24,000 nt of DNA from an uncultured Acidobacteriota bacterium. Its GTDB lineage: Bacteria; Acidobacteriota; Terriglobia; UBA7540. Where the stretch lies: assembly GCA_937900045.1 (NCBI GenBank), contig CALCEB010000207.1:1023-25022 (forward strand), in the 5' to 3' direction. The position numbers and the translations under genes were made by a program. Positions 143 through 21,124 of the stretch are shown in pieces (the stretch's first letter is position 1; each line of letters begins with the position of its first letter). The notes below the pieces were generated by a model that was given only the letters and a program-made list of their open reading frames with translations, was not told the DNA's origin and searched no databases.

Positions 143-764
143 TCAGGGGTTATAACCCCTGGCCGGGGCCGGGGCTCCCTTGTACCCCGCGTCGGCGCAC
201 AGGCGCTGAGGCCTCTTCAGACTCGTCGCGGGTCGCGCTCTCACCGCCTGGTCGAGTGTGGCCGGCAACAGCTTTACGTCATGCACGTTGGCTCCGCTCA
301 CGGCGAGCGACAGCGGGACGCCACGCCCGCCGACTAACAAACTTCGCTTGCGCCCTTTTTTTTCCCCGATCCGTGGGGTTGGCTCCCACACACTCGATGG
401 CCAGCGGGGCTTTCACCAAGGCCCCATCGATACTTTGCCAGTCCCAGGCGATGCCTTCCATCTCATCATACTCGGCCAATCCCGCCCGCCACAGCGCCAG
501 AAAGAAGCCGGCCCGGTGCCACTGTTGAAAGTGCTTGTGGATCGCGCTCGCACTACCAAATTCCTTCGGCAGAGCCTTCCACTGGCATCCCGTTCGCAAC
601 ACATACACGATGGCGGAAAATACCTTCTGCGGCGGCATCGGCTTTCGACCACCACCGGGTCGGCGTCTATACTTTCGCCCCTTCGCCCGCTGAGCAACGG
701 GAATCAACGGTTCGACCTTCACCCACAATTCATCCGACACTTCCCAAGATTTTATTTGTGGCAT
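143..764 (-). pseudogene. IS5-family DDE transposase, frameshifted and C-terminally truncated
   Basis: Minus-strand ORFs 764->279 and 391->143 read as one transposase. The N-terminal part is VLRTGCQWKALPKEFG...HKHFQQW, followed by NPTDRGKK / GRKRSLLVGGRGVPLSLAVSGANVHD and LCADAGY (first and second acidic regions). The frames are offset at an A8 run (T8 on the + strand, 356-363); seven A would restore one frame. The protein stops before the C-terminal third that would carry the catalytic E. Confidence 0.75.
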
Positions 765-870: not shown

Positions 871-3800
871 TTATGAAAGCATTTTCTCAATAATGGAGGG
901 AACCGAGTCCAAGGCCTCCTGCAGCTTTTCCGGCATTTTGCCGCCCGCTTCGGCCATGTCTTTGCGGCCGCCGCCACTGCCGCCGACCAGGGCTGCGGCG
1001 GCCTTCACAATCTTGCCAGCGTCCAGGCGATCCGTGAGGTCTTTAGAAACGGCAGCTACCAGCGCCACGTTGCCGTTGGCGGCGCTGCCGAGGACGATGA
1101 CGCCGCTTTGCAGGCGCGCGCGCAGATTGTCGACCATCTGGCGCAGGGCGGCTCTTTCGCTTCCTTCTGGAGTTTCGACGCGCGAAGAAACCACCCGCAC
1201 GCCCTTCACTTCACGGGCGCTTTCCGCCAACCCGCCGGTGCTGGCCGCGGCGCGCTTCATCCCGGACGCTTCAAGCTGCTTGCGCAGTTTCTTTTCGGAT
1301 TCGGCCAGCTTCGCGGCGGCCTGCAATAGCTCGCCGGGTTTGGCGCGGAGGACTTCCGTGAGGTTATTGAGGGTGGATTGCGCCTCGCGCAGGCGCCGAA
1401 GCACGCCTTCGCCCGTCAAAGCCTCAATGCGGCGCGTTCCCGCCGCCACGCTGCTTTCGGAAACCAGTTTGAACAGGCCAATGTCCCCGGTGCGGCGGAC
1501 GTGCGTGCCGCCACAAAGCTCTTTTGAAAACGAACCCTCGTCAATCGAGACCACCCGCACTTTGTCTCCATACTTTTCGCCAAACAGCGCCATCGCGCCG
1601 GAATTGACGGCGGTATCCAGGTCCATCACCTGAGTGCGGACTTCCTCGTTTTTCAGCACGTGCCGGTTCACCAGGTCTTCGATATCGAGCCGGTCCTGTT
1701 CATCGAGTGGCGCGTAATGCGTGAAGTCAAAGCGCAAATGGTCCGGCGCCACCAGCGACCCGGCCTGCTTCACGTGCGTGCCGAGCGTCTGGCGCAGCGC
1801 GGCGTGCAACAGGTGCGTGGCGGTATGGTTGCGGCGAATGGAGTCGCGACGCTCGGAGTCCACAATGGCGGTCACTCCTTGGCCCTTACGCAATTCCTGG
1901 AGCGCCACCGCAGTGTGGACGATTAGACCGCTGATCGGCGAATACGTCTTAGTGATGTGCGCTAGCTCGTGCTGGCTCACCAGATCAATCAATCGCCCGA
2001 CATCCCCAACCTGTCCTCCTGCCGCAGCGTAAAATGGCGTTCGGTCGAGAACGATTTCAACTTCCTTCGCTTTGCTTTGGGGTGTGATTCCATCAACGGG
2101 CTGCCCATTTACCACTAGTTGGACCACCTTACATCCGTGGAGAATGGTGGACTCATAACCGTTGAAGCTAGTTTTTTGCTTATCGGCTAGTTCCAGGTAA
2201 ATCGGAAGCGCGATCTTTTTCGCCGCACCTTTCCACGAAGCCCGCGCGCGCGCGCGCTGCTTCTGCATCTCGGTTTCGTAGCCGGCTCGGTCGATGGTAA
2301 AGCCGTAGACCTTCACAAGGTCCTCGACGATCTCTGGGCGAATACCGAAGGTGTCATGTAGCTTAAACAACTCTCCGCCGGGTATCCAGGCTCGGACACC
2401 CGCAGGGGGAAACCGCCAGTGGATTACTGATTCCAGTGCAACGCGAAGAGGTGAACCATCTGTCAGCCCATTCCCAACCCTGAGTAGCGCTCTGCGAGGC
2501 GTGTCGAACGCCCCTAAGGGACGAAATTCCTGGCCGACACTCATCCTGAAAACCTCGAACCAATCATTCGAGGCAACTCCTGCGGGGAGACGGCTCAACA
2601 CCCAATCGCAAACCCTGTTTGGATACTCCTCCTGGGATTGGCTCCAGGTTTGTACCCACTCCCGAAAGGCCGCTCGTTCCGCCGGGGTAGCATGTGGTTG
2701 GTGCTCCCTGTCAAACGTGTCCGAAAAGCCAGAATCAGAACCGGCGCTTCCGAGCCTGGCGATTGCCCTATGTAAGCGTCTCGCCATGCTGAATGGTAAC
2801 TCTTCCCCGCTGCTCAATACGACAGGTACGTCTTCCAACCGTTGTAGTCCTACCCTTGTGGTGTGCGCATACCGTTCTTCTTCAATCTTGATCGCCTTTG
2901 CTACGTGCGGAGCGGACTCTTCCAACTCAGGATAGGCACCTCGCATCATCTCGACCACTTTACTGGAGAGCTTGAAGAGAAATGGATCATTCAAGCTCAG
3001 CGTCTGACCGTGGTAGAGCGCCCGCCGTATGATAAGGCGGAGCACGTACCCCCGACCTTCGTTCGAGGGCAACACTCCGTCAGAAATGAGGACTGTTGAA
3101 GCGCGGGCGTGATCGGCAATAATGCGCAATGACACATCTGTCTGCGGGTTTGTGCCGTATTCAACGTTGGCCAAGGCCGCTGCTTCCTCAATCAATGGCC
3201 GGAACAGGTCGGTATCAAAGTTTGAGAGTTTACCCTGCAGCACGGTGGCCAGGCGTTCCAACCCCGCGCCGGTATCGATAGAAGGGCGGGGAAGCGGCGT
3301 CATTGCGCCTTGTTCGTCGCGGTTGAACTGCATGAAGACCAGGTTCCATAACTCCACGTAGCGACCGCAGTCGCAAGGGAAGCGGCAATCGGCGTGGCCC
3401 TGTTCACTCGCCGCCGGGCCCATGTCATAGTGAATTTCCGAACAAGGCCCGCAAGGACCGGTGTCGCCCATCGCCCAGAAATTGTCTTTCATGCCGAGCT
3501 CGAAGATGCGGTCAGCGGGAACGCCAAGCGCGCGCCAGCAGTTGAATGCTTCATTGTCGCGCGGAATATCGGCGTGGGGTTCGTTTGCGCCTTCAAAAAT
3601 CGTTACGTAAAGCTTGTCGCGGGGAATCTGGTAGCCCTCTGTGATCAATTCCCACGCCCAGGGAATCGCCTGATCCTTAAAGTAATCGCCAAAGGAGAAA
3701 TTGCCGAGCATCTCAAAGAAAGTGTGATGCCGGGCGGTGCGGCCCACCTGCTCCAGATCATTGTGTTTGCCGCCAGCGCGCACGCACTTCTGCGAGGAGC

Positions 3801-3981
3801 AGGCCCGAGAGTAGTCTCGTTTCTCGCGGCCCAGGAACACATCCTTGAACTGGTTCATTCCGGCGTTTGAAAACAGCAGGGTCAGATCATTGGCCGGGAC
3901 GAGCGAGGACGAGCGCACGACGCGATGGCCGCGGGCCTGAAAGAATTCAAGAAAACGGGATCGAATCTGGTCGGAGGTCAT
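871..3981 (-). CDS. alaS: Alanine--tRNA ligase (AlaRS), 1036 aa, with an atypical internal insertion of about 148 aa
   Basis: Colinear by eye with E. coli AlaRS. Shared motifs include LLFSNAGMNQFKDVFLG, CVRAGGKHNDLEQVGRTARHHTFFEMLGNFSFGDYFK, GPCGPCSEIHYD, WNLVFMQFNR, the editing-domain HTATHLLHAALRQ...GSLV and CGGTH, and the C-terminal GGGRKDMAEAGG (C-Ala domain). Confidence 0.97.
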   Translation of the reverse strand: MTSDQIRSRFLEFFQARGHRVVRSSSLVPANDLTLLFSNAGMNQFKDVFLGREKRDYSRACSSQKCVRAGGKHNDLEQVGRTARHHTFFEMLGNFSFGDYFKDQAIPWAWELITEGYQIPRDKLYVTIFEGANEPHADIPRDNEAFNCWRALGVPADRIFELGMKDNFWAMGDTGPCGPCSEIHYDMGPAASEQGHADCRFPCDCGRYVELWNLVFMQFNRDEQGAMTPLPRPSIDTGAGLERLATVLQGKLSNFDTDLFRPLIEEAAALANVEYGTNPQTDVSLRIIADHARASTVLISDGVLPSNEGRGYVLRLIIRRALYHGQTLSLNDPFLFKLSSKVVEMMRGAYPELEESAPHVAKAIKIEEERYAHTTRVGLQRLEDVPVVLSSGEELPFSMARRLHRAIARLGSAGSDSGFSDTFDREHQPHATPAERAAFREWVQTWSQSQEEYPNRVCDWVLSRLPAGVASNDWFEVFRMSVGQEFRPLGAFDTPRRALLRVGNGLTDGSPLRVALESVIHWRFPPAGVRAWIPGGELFKLHDTFGIRPEIVEDLVKVYGFTIDRAGYETEMQKQRARARASWKGAAKKIALPIYLELADKQKTSFNGYESTILHGCKVVQLVVNGQPVDGITPQSKAKEVEIVLDRTPFYAAAGGQVGDVGRLIDLVSQHELAHITKTYSPISGLIVHTAVALQELRKGQGVTAIVDSERRDSIRRNHTATHLLHAALRQTLGTHVKQAGSLVAPDHLRFDFTHYAPLDEQDRLDIEDLVNRHVLKNEEVRTQVMDLDTAVNSGAMALFGEKYGDKVRVVSIDEGSFSKELCGGTHVRRTGDIGLFKLVSESSVAAGTRRIEALTGEGVLRRLREAQSTLNNLTEVLRAKPGELLQAAAKLAESEKKLRKQLEASGMKRAAASTGGLAESAREVKGVRVVSSRVETPEGSERAALRQMVDNLRARLQSGVIVLGSAANGNVALVAAVSKDLTDRLDAGKIVKAAAALVGGSGGGRKDMAEAGGKMPEKLQEALDSVPSIIEKMLS

Positions 3982-4211
3982 TTGGGTTCCACAAAGAATA
4001 CACGGATATGGCTGTAGGGGCCGCCCTTATGGTCGCCCACGGGCGGGCCCGAGGCCCGCGCCTACTTAAAATCCCCGGCCCGATGCTTCAATTCGGACCG
4101 GGACCAAACCATTTTCATAATAGCATCGAAGGGAAATCCGAGCCGCATCAAGCTGTGACGCAGCGCGGCAAAGCCGCAACCAAAACATGCTAAAGAGACG
4201 CCATTACCGAA

Positions 4212-4231
4212 GCCAACATAGGCCAACATAG
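4212..4231. repeat. Perfect tandem duplication GCCAACATAG x2
   Basis: Read directly from the sequence; it lies in the non-coding gap upstream of alaS. Confidence 0.8.
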
Positions 4232-4372
4232 GCTTGACCGGGGCAAACGGATCGTGTACTATGTGGTACACATTTTTTGCGTTCGAGCCGGAAATCTGGC
4301 CCCGAATGACTCATGCCATGCTCCATATTCTCGCCGAGAATCACGATGTGCAGTCAGTCCAAGAAATCCGAC

Positions 4373-4414
4373 ATTCCCGCGAAACTCGTCCCCGCGAAGG
4401 CGGGGAGCGGGAAT
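4373..4414. repeat. REP-like nested palindromic element
   Basis: ATTCCCGC gaaactcgt CCCCGC gaag GCGGGG a GCGGGAAT. The outer 8-bp arms and inner 6-bp arms are both perfectly complementary. When translated it gives the HSRE..PREGGERES type of peptide that is typical of ORFs miscalled across such palindromic repeats. Confidence 0.6.
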
Positions 4415-5487
4415 CCATCCTGAAAGATCTGGAAGGCAGGGGTGAAGCGGTTCGCAACAAAAAAAGATTGTTTAGGGGGCAAACCCAAACTCCATTGAAA
4501 ACAAAGGACGACTTGAGGACCAACCCCATCCAAAGCCATTAAGCAAATCCATGAAATCCACTAACTACTTTATTATGTGTAAGATAAGGCGATTTCGAAG
4601 GCAAAGCCAAGCGTTTGATTTAGAATCAATAAGTTGGGAGACTCGTGAGACACCGGTTGGCTTTGCGTTGGTGAATTGGAAGAAGTGGCACTAGGCTTCA
4701 GCTCGGCACAGACCTCTCGCGACGGGAGCGAAACCAGTCCACCAAGGAACCTGAGGCGCCATGCTGTTTGGGAAGCTTAAGAGCGGGCTCGGACAGTTCG
4801 AGACAGATTTCCCTGGCCGGGCCGAGGCTAATTGGGAGCTGCACAGGTCTTGGGGATTTGATAGGGATTTGTCGTTCGGGAGTTGCAAATTGGACTTTTT
4901 TGAATATCCGCAACCCTTGTGCCTTGGCAGAAGTCTAAATTAAAGCGATGGGGATTCTGAAGATATTCAAAAATATAAACTTGGAGCATCAAGCCCAGTT
5001 ACGGAGGAGGTTCTTACGCAGTTTCTACCTGACAAATACCGCCGGACCGGGTGTCCGAGCCGTTGCACGGCGGGGAGCGCAGGCGTCCTGGGACGGCAAA
5101 ACTCGTCCAATCCATTGATTATTCAAAGGATGGGGGGCTGCAACTCAAAGTAAGTAATGTGCAGTCCGACCTATTAAATGTGCCATTCGACAAAATTCGA
5201 TTAACCCTTGGGTTATATCTGCTTAACATGTTGTTTGTAAAGGCGGGGCCTTACCCGGCTTTGGGTTACCGGAAGCCGGCTCCTGGGTCGGGCGCAAAGA
5301 GAAATCCTGATAGGACAAGCATCCTTGACGGTGGGCGTGGCGTGAACGTCCAGACAGGCCCCAGGGGAACGAGTAGACAGTTTGCGAAAGAGCAGTTTTA
5401 CAGAGTTGAGATACCTCGCGTTCGGACCGTACCTGCTCCGGGTGAGCAGACGGGCCGAAAACAATCCTAAAATTGAGGTAAAAATTA

Positions 5488-8170
<2,683 letters not shown>

Positions 8171-8209: not shown

Positions 8210-8303
8210 GGAGAGGTACCGAAGTGGTCATAACGGGGGCGCCTCGAAAGCGTCTTGCCTGCCAAAAGCGGGCACGTGGGTTCGAATCCCACCCTCTCCG
8301 CCA
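8210..8303 (+). tRNA. tRNA-Ser (anticodon CGA), class II with a long variable arm, CCA encoded
   Basis: Folded by hand. Acceptor GGAGAGG/CCTCTCC; D stem CCG/CGG; anticodon stem GGCGC/GCGTC with loop CTCGAAA; variable arm GCCTGC-caaaa-GCGGGC; T arm GTGGG-TTCGAAT-CCCAC; discriminator G plus CCA. Confidence 0.95.
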
Positions 8304-14855: not shown

Positions 14856-14902
14856 GAATATTTGTGTCTGAGCTTTACAACCAACATGCAGGGAGGCAGC
14901 CA

Positions 14903-17361
<2,459 letters not shown>

Positions 17362-17557
17362 AAATAGGTGGTCAGCCCTCAGCGTTCAGCTTCCATCGGC
17401 TTGTTCATCTTAGGGGCTTCTTTTGAGCACATGGGGGACGGTTTTATCAGAATGCTCAAAGAGAACCCGGTGCTTATCGCTTCCGTATTGCGCCCCGTAT
17501 GGCTGAATGCTGACGGCGTCTTGGATGGTTCGATTTTACCGTTCTTCTTGTGATCCC

Positions 17558-19015
17558 ATGAAAGAAATTGCTCAAAGCGCGTTGGAAACGGCGCGAGTCC
17601 GGGGCGCGACTTACGCGGACGCGCGCGTCATGGACATCCGCCAGCGTTTCATCTCTACCAAGAACGGCCAAGCCGCGCAAGTGCGGGAATCGCAGTCGGT
17701 AGGGCTTGGCATCCGGGTGATTGCGGAGGGCGCTTGGGGGTTTGCTTCCACAGAAGACTTGACTCGCGCCTCGGCGGACGCCGCGGCCGCAAAGGCGGTG
17801 GAGATTGCGAAGGCCAGCGCTCTTTGCAAGAAGCATGACGTGAACCTGGCCCCCGAACAGAGGGTGGTTGACCAATGGCAAGGCCCTTGCCGCATCGATC
17901 CGTTTTCCGTGCCGGTTTCAACCTGCCTGGACCTCATGCTGAAGGTGGATGCGGAGCTATGCCGCGTCGAAGGGGTCACGCTGGCCGAATGCGCCATGGA
18001 TTTCCGCCACATCGACCAGCTTTTCATCTCCAGCATGGGTTCGGAAATCCGGCAGGTGAAGACGCAGACGGGCGCGGGATATTCGGCGACATCGTTTGCC
18101 GGGAATGAAATTCAGCGCCGTTCTTTTCCTAATTCCTTCGGGGGGCAATATCAAACCAGGGGCTACGAGCTGATTGAGGAATTGGATCTGGTGGGGAACG
18201 CCCCGCGCATCGCCGAAGAAGCGGCGGCGCTCCACGCCTGCGACCAGTGTCCGGCGGGAGTGATGGACATTATCCTGGGCGGTTCCCAATTGGGCCTGCA
18301 GATTCACGAATCGGTCGGGCATCCGATCGAACTGGACCGCGTGCTGGGTGATGAGGCCAATTACGCGGGTATGAGCTTCCTGACGCTCGAAAAACTCAAC
18401 CTGTTGCAATACGCTTCGGAGATTGTGAACGTCGTAGCCGACGCCACCGTCAGCCACGGGCCAGGCCTTGGGACTTTTGCCTACGATGACGAGGGAGTTC
18501 CCGCGCAGTGTACCCCCGTCATCAAGGACGGGCGCTTCGTGGGTTACCTGAGCTCGCGGGAATCCGCCGCATCCATAGGCCAGCCACGGTCGAGCGGCGC
18601 CATGCGGGCCGAATGTTGGAACCGCATTCCGCTGATCCGTATGACCAACGTCAGTCTGCTGCCTGGCAACTGGCGCCTGGAAGACTTGATTGCGGATACC
18701 CAGGAAGCCATCTTCATGGAGACGAACCGGAGCTGGTCGATCGACGACCGGCGCTATAACTTCCAGTTTGGGACTGAGGTGGGCTGGGAAATCAAGAATG
18801 GCAAGAAGACGCGGATGCTCAAGAACCCTAGCTACGGCGGCATTACCACGGAGTTCTGGAATTCGTGCGACGCCATCTGCGGACCCGGGGAATGGACGCT
18901 GTGGGGTACACCGAACTGCGGCAAGGGCCAACCCATGCAGACCATGGGCACGGGCCACGGAGCGGCCCCGGCGCGCTTCCGGACCGTGCAGGTGGGCGTG
19001 GCGTACCAACAATAA
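17558..19015 (+). CDS. tldD: TldD-type metallopeptidase (TldD/PmbA family, catalytic subunit)
   Basis: HESVGHPIELD (HExxxH) motif, plus GGSQLG, YDDEGVP, NCGKGQP and a size of about 485 aa. The start is set at ATG 17558 (MKEIAQSALE...). Confidence 0.9.
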   Translation: MKEIAQSALETARVRGATYADARVMDIRQRFISTKNGQAAQVRESQSVGLGIRVIAEGAWGFASTEDLTRASADAAAAKAVEIAKASALCKKHDVNLAPEQRVVDQWQGPCRIDPFSVPVSTCLDLMLKVDAELCRVEGVTLAECAMDFRHIDQLFISSMGSEIRQVKTQTGAGYSATSFAGNEIQRRSFPNSFGGQYQTRGYELIEELDLVGNAPRIAEEAAALHACDQCPAGVMDIILGGSQLGLQIHESVGHPIELDRVLGDEANYAGMSFLTLEKLNLLQYASEIVNVVADATVSHGPGLGTFAYDDEGVPAQCTPVIKDGRFVGYLSSRESAASIGQPRSSGAMRAECWNRIPLIRMTNVSLLPGNWRLEDLIADTQEAIFMETNRSWSIDDRRYNFQFGTEVGWEIKNGKKTRMLKNPSYGGITTEFWNSCDAICGPGEWTLWGTPNCGKGQPMQTMGTGHGAAPARFRTVQVGVAYQQ

Positions 19016-19067
19016 CGGCCTAATATAACCGTCTGTCCAACCGGCCCAGTAGGATCAAGACCAATCC

Positions 19068-20402
19068 ATGTTAAATCGCAAGCTTGCCGACGAACTTTTT
19101 GAAAAGGCTCTGAAATATTCCACTGCGGATGAGACGGAGGCCCACATCGCCTCCACCTCCTACTCGCTCACTCGCTTCGCCAACAATACGATTCACCAAA
19201 ACATGGCGGAAGAGGACTTGAACCTCTCGGTGCGGGCTGCGGTGGACCACCGCACGGCGCGCGCTACCACCAACCGCCTGGACGATACTTCCATCCGCGA
19301 AGTGTGCGAGGCCGCCCAGGCGCTTGCCCGGCTGCAACGGCCGGATGAGGAGATGCTCCGGATGCCTGGAGGCCAAACCTACCGGTCCGTGGAGCGCTGT
19401 GACCCGGAGACGGCGGAGCTCGGTCCGCGCGCCCGCGCCGAAACCGTGAAGCAGGTGATTGAGCGGGCAGAGAAAGATCAGCTCACGGCGGCGGGGGTCT
19501 TTTCCAGTGGCAAGGTAGCTCAGGCGATTTACAACTCCCGGGGCCTCCGCGCCTTCCATGAGGAATCGGTCTCTGAATTTTCCGTAACCATGCTGTCAGA
19601 TACCGGCTCCGGCTGGGCCAAGAAGACCGGGCAGCGCTATCAGACGCTCGATCCGTTGGGTCTCGCCGGCCGCGCCGCAAGCAAAGCGCTCCGCAGCCGC
19701 GAGCCCAAGGAGATTCAGCCGGGGCGCTACACCGTGATCCTTGAACCCTCGGCGGTGATGGATATGCTGGGCTTCATGCTGCTCGATTTTGGCGGCCTCG
19801 CGGTGCTCGAGCAGAGAAGCTGCCTGACGGGACGTGAGAAGCAGAAAGTGTTCGGGGGGAACATTCAGATTGGCGATGATGTTTATCATCCTTCGCAGAG
19901 CGGCGCCCCGTTCGATGGTGAAGGCATTCCGCGCCATCGGGTGAGACTGGTTGAGAACGGCGTGGTTGAAAACTTGGTCTATGCACGGCATACCGCGCAT
20001 AAGATGGGAAAGGAACCCACCGGCCACGGCTTCCCGCTGCCAAACGAGATGGGTGAAGCGCCGCTGAACATCGTCATGGAGGGTGGCCGCGGCACGGTCG
20101 AGGAGATGATCCGGTCCACTGAACGCGGATTGCTCTTGACCCGCCTTTGGTACATCCGTGAAGTTGATCCTTACCAGAAAATCCTGACCGGCATGACCCG
20201 GGATGGGACGTTCTTCATTGAAAATGGCGAGATTCAGTACGGCGTAAAAAACCTGCGATTCAATCAGAGTTTGATTGAGATGCTGAACCACGTGGAGATG
20301 ATGAGCGCCCCGCAGCGCGCCGCCGGCGAGGAATCGATTGAGATGGTGGTGCCAGCCATGAAGGTGGTGGATTTCAATTTCTCATCGACGACCAAGTTTT
20401 AG
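19068..20402 (+). CDS. pmbA: PmbA/TldE-type TldD partner protein (TldD/PmbA family, no HExxxH)
   Basis: Family-typical layout: N-terminal ...TRFANNTIHQN, then FDGEGIP, GHGF, LLLTRLWY, and a C-terminal VDFNFSSTTKF. It is adjacent to tldD. Confidence 0.85.
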   Translation: MLNRKLADELFEKALKYSTADETEAHIASTSYSLTRFANNTIHQNMAEEDLNLSVRAAVDHRTARATTNRLDDTSIREVCEAAQALARLQRPDEEMLRMPGGQTYRSVERCDPETAELGPRARAETVKQVIERAEKDQLTAAGVFSSGKVAQAIYNSRGLRAFHEESVSEFSVTMLSDTGSGWAKKTGQRYQTLDPLGLAGRAASKALRSREPKEIQPGRYTVILEPSAVMDMLGFMLLDFGGLAVLEQRSCLTGREKQKVFGGNIQIGDDVYHPSQSGAPFDGEGIPRHRVRLVENGVVENLVYARHTAHKMGKEPTGHGFPLPNEMGEAPLNIVMEGGRGTVEEMIRSTERGLLLTRLWYIREVDPYQKILTGMTRDGTFFIENGEIQYGVKNLRFNQSLIEMLNHVEMMSAPQRAAGEESIEMVVPAMKVVDFNFSSTTKF

Positions 20403-21049: not shown

Positions 21050-21124
21050 GGCGCTATCGTCTAGGGGTTAGGACGTGAGATTCTCAATCTCAAAACCCGG
21101 GTTCGATTCCCGGTAGCGCTACCA
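21050..21124 (+). tRNA. tRNA-Glu (anticodon CTC), CCA encoded
   Basis: Hand fold. Acceptor GGCGCTA/TAGCGCT (G1-U72 wobble); D arm GTCT-AGGGGTTA-GGAC; anticodon stem TGAGA/TCTCA with loop TTCTCAA; T arm CCGGG-TTCGATT-CCCGG; A plus CCA. Confidence 0.9.

Follow-up and report, generated by a model that had tools for sequence, protein, structure and literature searches.

The alanyl-tRNA synthetase (AlaRS) gene alaS of the stretch analysed here, a 24-kb window on contig CALCEB010000207.1 of an uncultured Acidobacteriota bacterium, encodes an enzyme with a 148-residue insert in the place of a short canonical loop. This insert is not a one-off insertion: it represents one allele at an expansion site that is hypervariable across the clade in Terriglobia AlaRS. 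The explanation given the highest probability, roughly 0.6, is that the insert is an accessory domain that is tolerated, turns over fast and is under relaxed constraint. Residue numbers are those of the window alaS protein throughout, and the coordinates of the features are collected in Table 1.

The hypervariability of the site was seen in a full-length protein search, from which the best 120 AlaRS matches were taken; the extent of the hot spot is known within those 120, all of which belonged to Terriglobia, Acidobacteriia or Acidobacteriota wherever they were named. In the 882-column core of the MAFFT alignment of these relatives, no general indel hot spot other than the insert site was seen. 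Between columns 384 and 533, extra residues were present in 120/120 relatives (29-205 residues, median 58) and in none of E. coli AlaRS, Aquifex AlaRS and the Pfam model. The 78 inserts of at least 50 amino acids (aa) fell into 28 clusters without a blastp link at E <= 1e-3; edge motifs were common to many inserts, and the interiors differed. The 147-aa class, to which the window insert is homologous, and a 91-aa class were unrelated by hhalign (probability 0.75%) and likewise by DNA comparison. A frameshift relation between these two classes was also rejected, the blastn matches being confined to the in-frame flanks. The closest core relative among the 120 matches (P0004, 83% core identity) carried an unrelated 91-aa insert, so that AlaRS cannot depend on this particular 148-aa sequence for its essential function. 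Since close relatives have unrelated or much shorter sequence at the same place, the exact insert sequence is dispensable for core AlaRS function. What is fixed in the clade is thus the position, flanked by conserved sequence, and neither the length nor the sequence is conserved. Neighbour-joining trees were uninformative on the monophyly of the insert classes because the sample was star-like, the genes were mosaic and the matches had been found partly through the insert. Insertions at other places were observed in two relatives: L002 (P0011, 1156 aa) has a second, singleton insertion of ~137 residues at the window-equivalent aa 628-638, at the start of the editing domain, and P0064 has several extra inserts of 8-21 aa elsewhere in the protein.

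The identity of the window protein was supported by TIGR00344 (899 bits, cut-off 457; NCBIfam) and by Pfam matches to PF01411 (E = 1.5e-186), PF07973 and PF02272. The full domain order (catalytic, tRNA-recognition, editing, C-Ala) is kept, with tRNA_SAD and DHHA1 present, and the full-length model retrieved AlaRS structures in Foldseek. The HxxxH and CxxxH zinc ligands of the editing site (H719, H723, C823 and H827) were invariant. Compared with E. coli AlaS (876 aa), the window AlaRS showed 51% and 43% identity in two blocks, and PF01411 and TIGR00344 each matched it in two stretches, with the break at ~aa 385-403. In the alignment with Aquifex AlaRS (1riq), query residues 3-385 correspond to 5-367 and query residues 531-605 to 377-450, the Aquifex loop being ~12 residues long. 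E. coli AlaS aligned to ~residue 380 and again from L390, which is equivalent to window I533, so that 9 residues in E. coli (ELAKLSGDT) stand against 148 in the window.

These alignments agree with the initial annotation, which was made from the sequence alone and proposed an in-frame insertion of ~148 residues where E. coli has ~10. The open reading frame (ORF) called at 871..3981 on the minus strand gave the same length of 1036 aa, and the ~888 aa left without the insert is a normal AlaRS length, close to the 882 core columns of the 120 relatives. The insert sits where the helical tRNA-recognition subdomain meets the alpha/beta subdomain that follows it. The proposed boundaries (aa 385-532) map exactly to 2386-2829, with one refinement: the N-terminal edge is ambiguous by ~19 residues, as BLAST and Pfam extend the first block up to aa 403-404 owing to the likeness of SGEELPFSMARRLH to the canonical SGxxLxGxxAFRLY. 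The richness in Trp, Arg and Phe was also borne out by composition, with W 4.1% vs 0.7%, R 11.5% vs 7.7% and F 6.1% vs 3.6% in the insert and in the rest of AlaRS, respectively; Lys was 0% in the insert vs 5.1% in the rest.

Homologous inserts of 142-150 aa were present in 10/120 relatives, all of them Terriglobia AlaRS, with 31-53% identity to the window insert and 14 invariant columns, and pattern scans revealed 7 further loci with a homologous insert. The invariant positions of this class include G392, E393, E435, E441, L465, P466 and Q484 and, in insert numbering, P141, P142, A147 and W148. The ratio of nonsynonymous to synonymous substitution rates (dN/dS) was calculated by the Nei-Gojobori method from codon-aligned DNA of the window and seven relatives (L001-L007). 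Values for the insert were 0.21-0.62, those for the remainder of alaS were 0.08-0.18, and no pair reached 1; purifying selection thus acts on the insert, at a strength 3-5 times lower than elsewhere in the gene. Judged from these sequences, the insert is real and translated, and it is retained in protein-coding form.

The structure of the insert was predicted with AlphaFold2 (AF2). In the full-length model, the predicted local distance difference test (pLDDT) score of the insert was 83-96; for the insert alone, the pLDDT was 90.6 and the predicted template modelling score 0.83, with confident predictions in only 2/5 models. The predicted helices of the variable module are 397-402, 404-408, 419-430, 433-463 (31 residues), 473-486, 495-504 and 511-523, and the chain is predicted to return through strand 531-533 and to continue into helix 535-545. 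The insert is therefore predicted by the model to form a stalk (strands within 385-397 and the return strand 531-533) bearing a projecting autonomous helical bundle of ~125 residues. The framework is shared more widely than the bundle: the xPVVxxSGxxhxF motif of the N-terminal framework is common to most insert classes, the PPxGxxW motif of the C-terminal framework recurs in many of them, PP occurs within the last 10 insert residues in 67/120 relatives, and W is the last residue in 59/120.

No known relative of the insert was found outside AlaRS, in line with the initial view that it resembles no recognised domain. Nothing significant was obtained against Pfam (best DUF4880, E = 0.028 over 18 residues), NCBIfam, PHROGs and PADLOC. 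The insert model had no significant Foldseek match in PDB (best E = 0.15, with a template modelling score of at most 0.34) or in BFVD (best E = 0.75). A profile of 11 inserts searched against 1.84 billion representative proteins retrieved a single fragment of AlaRS together with four giant repeat proteins. The latter were rejected as repeat-inflated artefacts, since they matched many unrelated Pfam families and contained zero significant single stretches. A word-index protein search with the insert alone or with the insert alignment returned no match; these nulls are false negatives, because the same database yields 10 insert-homologue proteins by full-length search, and for short, fast-evolving segments they are not to be read as absence. 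Descent from a diverged copy of some other part of AlaRS was also considered for the 147-aa class and was rejected by hhalign against the N-terminal, downstream and C-terminal alignments (probability <1%). A hidden Markov model of the downstream-block motif scored no better than shuffles against the N-terminal edge of the inserts, and the faint echoes that remain (SGEELPF...RRLH; L-x-DTF) had no statistical support. A description of this insert was looked for in the literature and not found.

The insert lies beside a segment that recognises the acceptor stem of tRNA. The LHDTFG motif starts 9 residues after W532, at L541, and D543 stands 11 residues past W532, about 10 residues beyond the insert end, and the insert end lies at the opposite end of predicted helix 535-545 from D543. 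N307, D543 and G546 were invariant in 87 relatives. In E. coli, the equivalent N303, D400 and G403, together with Y399, read G3:U70, the D400/G403 side acting in the minor groove, and D400A and D400N are nearly inactive (PMC6055181). Y399 is strictly conserved among A. fulgidus, E. coli and human AlaRS (PMC6055181); at the equivalent H542 (2359-2361), His is present in nearly all AlaRS of the clade. The net charge of the window insert is 0, class members range from -3 to +5, and the conserved polar residues are mostly acidic; neutral charge together with acidic conserved residues does not resemble an RNA-binding surface. Acidobacteria are reported to carry allo-tRNAs, some with G3:U70, which E. 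coli AlaRS can charge (PMC5389517), and as a link to the insert these are only a lead.

The codon usage of the insert was atypical. AGA/AGG accounted for 8/17 Arg codons in the insert, compared with 2/68 in the rest of alaS (Fisher p = 2e-5) and 31/309 in 11 other window genes (p = 2e-4), and the GC content at third codon positions was 0.57 vs 0.69. The same enrichment was observed in 7/7 homologues, including the unrelated 91-aa class (AGA/AGG share 35-67% in the insert vs 1-18% in the rest of alaS), and was absent from other fast-evolving parts of alaS. Three conserved arginine positions with AGA or AGG (AGR) are listed in Table 1. The enrichment may reflect unameliorated non-genic or foreign DNA, frequent Lys/Arg interchange, or selected slow translation at a domain boundary.

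Among the relatives, two routes by which new insert material can appear were visible. In P0078 (aa 384-540), a 53-aa tandem duplicate of the block downstream of the insertion site was found, in whose upstream copy the G3:U70 motif LHDTYG has decayed to LQVAYG; this is an intermediate of insert birth caught in the act. In P0045, P0071, P0102 and P0114, 17-aa tandem repeats (APNEALGKALARASEVM) make up inserts of 120, 137, 137 and 205 aa, respectively, which is repeat expansion inside an essential enzyme. New insert material would thus arise locally, by tandem duplication of the adjacent block and by repeat expansion.

Exchange between lineages is suggested by the alaS genes, which were mosaic in the comparison of the window with L001-L007: blocks of 90-98% nucleotide identity adjoin blocks of ~50%, with third-position identities of 0.8-0.98 and ~0.3, respectively. 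Window and P0004 alaS, for example, are 89-95% identical over aa 721-1036 and 65-86% identical over aa 1-360. This mosaicism points to intragenic recombination of divergent alleles or to chimeric assemblies in some of the relatives. In same-class pairs, dS of the insert fell below that of the remaining alaS sequence, as expected if alleles are swapped by homologous recombination through the conserved flanks, and in part this is an ascertainment effect, since the pairs were found via their inserts. Insert alleles would accordingly be shuffled between lineages by recombination through these flanks. A bolder idea, which we hold only tentatively and regard as doubtful, is that the loop before the G3:U70-reading helix acts as a domain nursery, in which unrelated peptides are repeatedly born, some mature into autonomously folded orphan domains and are exchanged as cassettes, with a diversification perhaps tied to the tRNA repertoire of Acidobacteria, including G3:U70-bearing allo-tRNAs. 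Capture of non-genic or out-of-frame DNA may then be a third source, and it would explain the AGA/AGG-rich, Lys-poor and Trp/Arg/Pro-rich signature.

In the favoured explanation, the insert would be an accessory module at the protein surface, and core catalysis would not depend on its exact sequence. The loop that carries it joins the last helix of the helical tRNA-recognition subdomain to the strand-helix unit with D543. Selection on it would be real but relaxed, most likely preserving a compact, non-disruptive fold in an essential enzyme, and an effect on acceptor-stem docking would most likely be modulatory at most. Several observations weigh against this explanation. That the insert has little effect on tRNA binding is something we infer, and a place ~10 residues from the reader of G3:U70 is not obviously neutral. 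The confident fold, the 14 invariant columns and the dN/dS below 1 could equally be the mark of a specific function, and an AGA/AGG enrichment located at conserved positions and recurring in 7 homologues is not predicted by simple neutrality.

In the strongest competing explanation, to which we give a minor but appreciable chance, the insert could be a functional module at the tRNA-recognition face that contacts the acceptor or T-arm of tRNA(Ala), alters the discrimination of non-cognate tRNAs bearing G3:U70 or docks a partner protein, with lineage-specific solutions. Its anchoring ~10 residues upstream of D543, the confident fold prediction, the purifying selection with the invariant residues G392 to Q484 named above and the chargeability of G3:U70-bearing acidobacterial allo-tRNAs by E. 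coli AlaRS are all what such a module would lead one to expect. The charge of the insert and the acidity of its conserved polar residues speak against it, however, as do the unrelated or 30-aa sequences at the site in close relatives and the lack of similarity to any known tRNA-binding domain in Pfam and in the Foldseek search of PDB.

It is unlikely that the variability is driven by conflict, the loop being targeted by an AlaRS-directed toxin, phage factor or inhibitor and escaping by replacement or recombination. At least 28 unrelated families at one site of an otherwise conserved essential enzyme, and their mosaic, cassette-like genealogies, would suit such an arms race, but dN/dS was below 1 in every pair, and no defence or toxin context was found in the window or in related loci; PADLOC gave nothing. 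To our knowledge, no AlaRS-directed antagonist of this kind has been described.

A selfish in-frame element in alaS, such as an intein, a palindrome like those of Rickettsia or a miniature inverted-repeat transposable element, is very improbable. The insert is in frame, stop-free, located in a surface loop and atypical in codon usage, as such an element might be. However, its junctions, V385 on one side and A531-W532 followed by I533 on the other, offer neither a Cys/Ser/Thr nucleophile nor His-Asn, and the Pfam scan matched no Hint or intein domain; an intein was rejected on this basis. Inverted or direct repeats at both boundaries and target duplication were absent, the RNA folding score was z = 0.15, no second copy was present in the 24-kb window, and no relative outside AlaRS was detected among the 1.84 billion representative proteins. 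The suggestion in the initial annotation of a domesticated in-frame mobile insertion was dropped on these grounds. That the insert is an artefact, either a chimeric assembly or an untranslated segment, is scarcely credible: the alaS gene (3111 nt) is 100% identical in contigs of three different samples (JGI 3300022557, ENA ERZ27245795 and JGI 3300007982), which excludes the misassembly at 2386-2829 that had been named as a possible refutation, homologous inserts occur in at least 10 other proteins and 7 more loci, and the frame is kept with dN/dS below 1.

Three further sequence features at the insert were recorded. A perfect 11-nt inverted repeat (CCAGGCTCGGA / TCCGAGCCTGG, 2386-2396 / 2749-2759) has its first arm exactly on the 3' edge of the insert, and its second arm falls within the insert, 70 nt from the 5' edge; with ~0.2 pairs of this kind expected at random over the 1.3 kb that were scanned, it is probably due to chance. 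A structured RNA was rejected, as no Rfam family was found in alaS and the RNA stability was ordinary. An antisense gene was rejected as well: the 194-aa ORF at 2351-2935 on the plus strand exactly spans the insert, and it is taken as a chance ORF because it is open only in the window, with 2-7 same-frame stops in the homologues, and comparable antisense ORFs are found in other parts of alaS.

The insert can be compared with several known systems. Rickettsia palindromic elements (RPEs), reported by Ogata et al. in 2000 as in-frame insertions in protein genes, are palindromic DNA repeats present at many loci, whose in-frame peptides are tolerated on the surfaces of housekeeping proteins. The AlaRS insert resembles them as an extra in-frame segment tolerated at the surface of a housekeeping protein, but neither a palindrome nor an RNA or DNA hairpin signal was detected in it, and the 24 kb contain no further copy. 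Like inteins, it is large, interrupts an essential enzyme in frame and lies close to a functional site; unlike them, it lacks splice-junction residues and a Hint or endonuclease domain and is predicted to be a helical bundle. The expansion segments of rRNA occupy fixed sites in a conserved translation component and vary freely in length and sequence while the core is unchanged. By analogy, the AlaRS site is fixed, its contents are variable and the core is unchanged, with the difference that the AlaRS inserts are protein and that some alleles are apparently folded domains. Signature indels are known in AlaRS of Spirochaetaceae (2 aa) and Leptospiraceae (4 aa) at ~aa 165-306 (PMC3726837). Those indels share with the insert site the clade restriction, the fixed position and the conserved flanks, but they are 2-4 residues long, constant and located at other positions, while the insert site holds 29-205 residues of variable length and sequence. 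Apicoplast aminoacyl-tRNA synthetases (aaRSs) carry lineage-specific, "idiosyncratic" insertion domains (PMC6310243). These too are in-frame extra peptides in surface loops, absent from the enzymes of model organisms and of unclear function; the window insert differs in being predicted as well folded and not low-complexity, and the Terriglobia site differs in holding many unrelated sequences and not one conserved insert. The insert belongs with the lineage-specific aaRS insertions and is unusual among them in host enzyme, position and number of unrelated alleles.

AlaRS is regarded as architecturally invariant across life, and textbooks present its reading of one base pair, G3:U70, as the "second genetic code". 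Reviews and research papers on the enzyme stress a conserved prototype structure. The tolerance of 29-205 unrelated residues ~10 residues from the G3:U70-reading Asp is an unexpected plasticity of the tRNA-recognition domain, and at least one insert class is a confidently predicted orphan fold. The Terriglobia enzymes offer a natural series of insertion alleles for studying how acceptor-stem recognition tolerates or exploits bulky neighbours. They also offer a tractable case of the birth of a new domain in an essential enzyme, with a decaying duplicate, a repeat expansion and a folded orphan domain as visible intermediates. The mosaicism of alaS in these soil bacteria undermines its use as a phylogenetic marker. 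If the insert is near neutral, it is a curiosity of protein evolution and not new biochemistry.

Table 1. Positions in the 24-kb window of alaS, of the insert with its parts, and of individual residues of the encoded AlaRS.
Feature	Position	Strand	Basis or remark
alaS, alanine--tRNA ligase, 1036 aa	871..3981	minus	ORF call and profile matches; stop codon at 871-873
Insert, aa 385-532 (148 aa), in place of a canonical loop of 9-12 residues	2386..2829	minus	Profile, Aquifex and E. coli alignments
N-terminal framework, aa 385-397 (VPVVLSSGEELPF), predicted beta-hairpin	2791..2829	minus	AF2 strands 386-389 and 394-396
Variable module, aa 398-523, predicted all-alpha bundle	2413..2790	minus	AF2 pLDDT 83-96
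C-terminal framework, aa 524-532 (FPPAGVRAW), PPxGxxW motif	2386..2412	minus	Leads into predicted strand 531-533
LHDTFG, aa 541-546; D543 = E. coli D400, G546 = E. coli G403	2344..2361	minus	E. coli alignment
N307 = E. coli N303, major-groove reader of U70	3061..3063	minus	E. coli alignment
R401, AGA codon; AGR in all or nearly all of the 7 class members examined	2779..2781	minus	Codon alignment
R425; AGR in nearly all class members	2707-2709	minus	Codon alignment
R456; AGR in nearly all class members	2614-2616	minus	Codon alignment

In the surroundings of alaS, a 161-aa ORF (279-764, minus strand) lies directly downstream and covers no more of an IS4/IS5-family transposase than its N-terminal DUF4096 part. 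The recX / 23S-rRNA-IVP / alaS synteny of L001-L003 and L007 is absent in the window. The ~1.5 kb between alaS and the next gene (3982-5487) contains no convincing ORF and no Rfam match at gathering score; a single 93-aa gene was called in the equivalent region of the identical contigs. This region is followed by a radical-SAM gene with an HMPTM-type zinc ribbon (5488-7590), a tadA-like tRNA adenosine deaminase gene (7676-8170) and tRNA-Ser(CGA) (8210-8303). Further along, metK-ahcY (14864-17361) and tldD/pmbA (17507-20402) form an ordinary housekeeping context, and tRNA-Glu(CTC) is located at 21050-21124.

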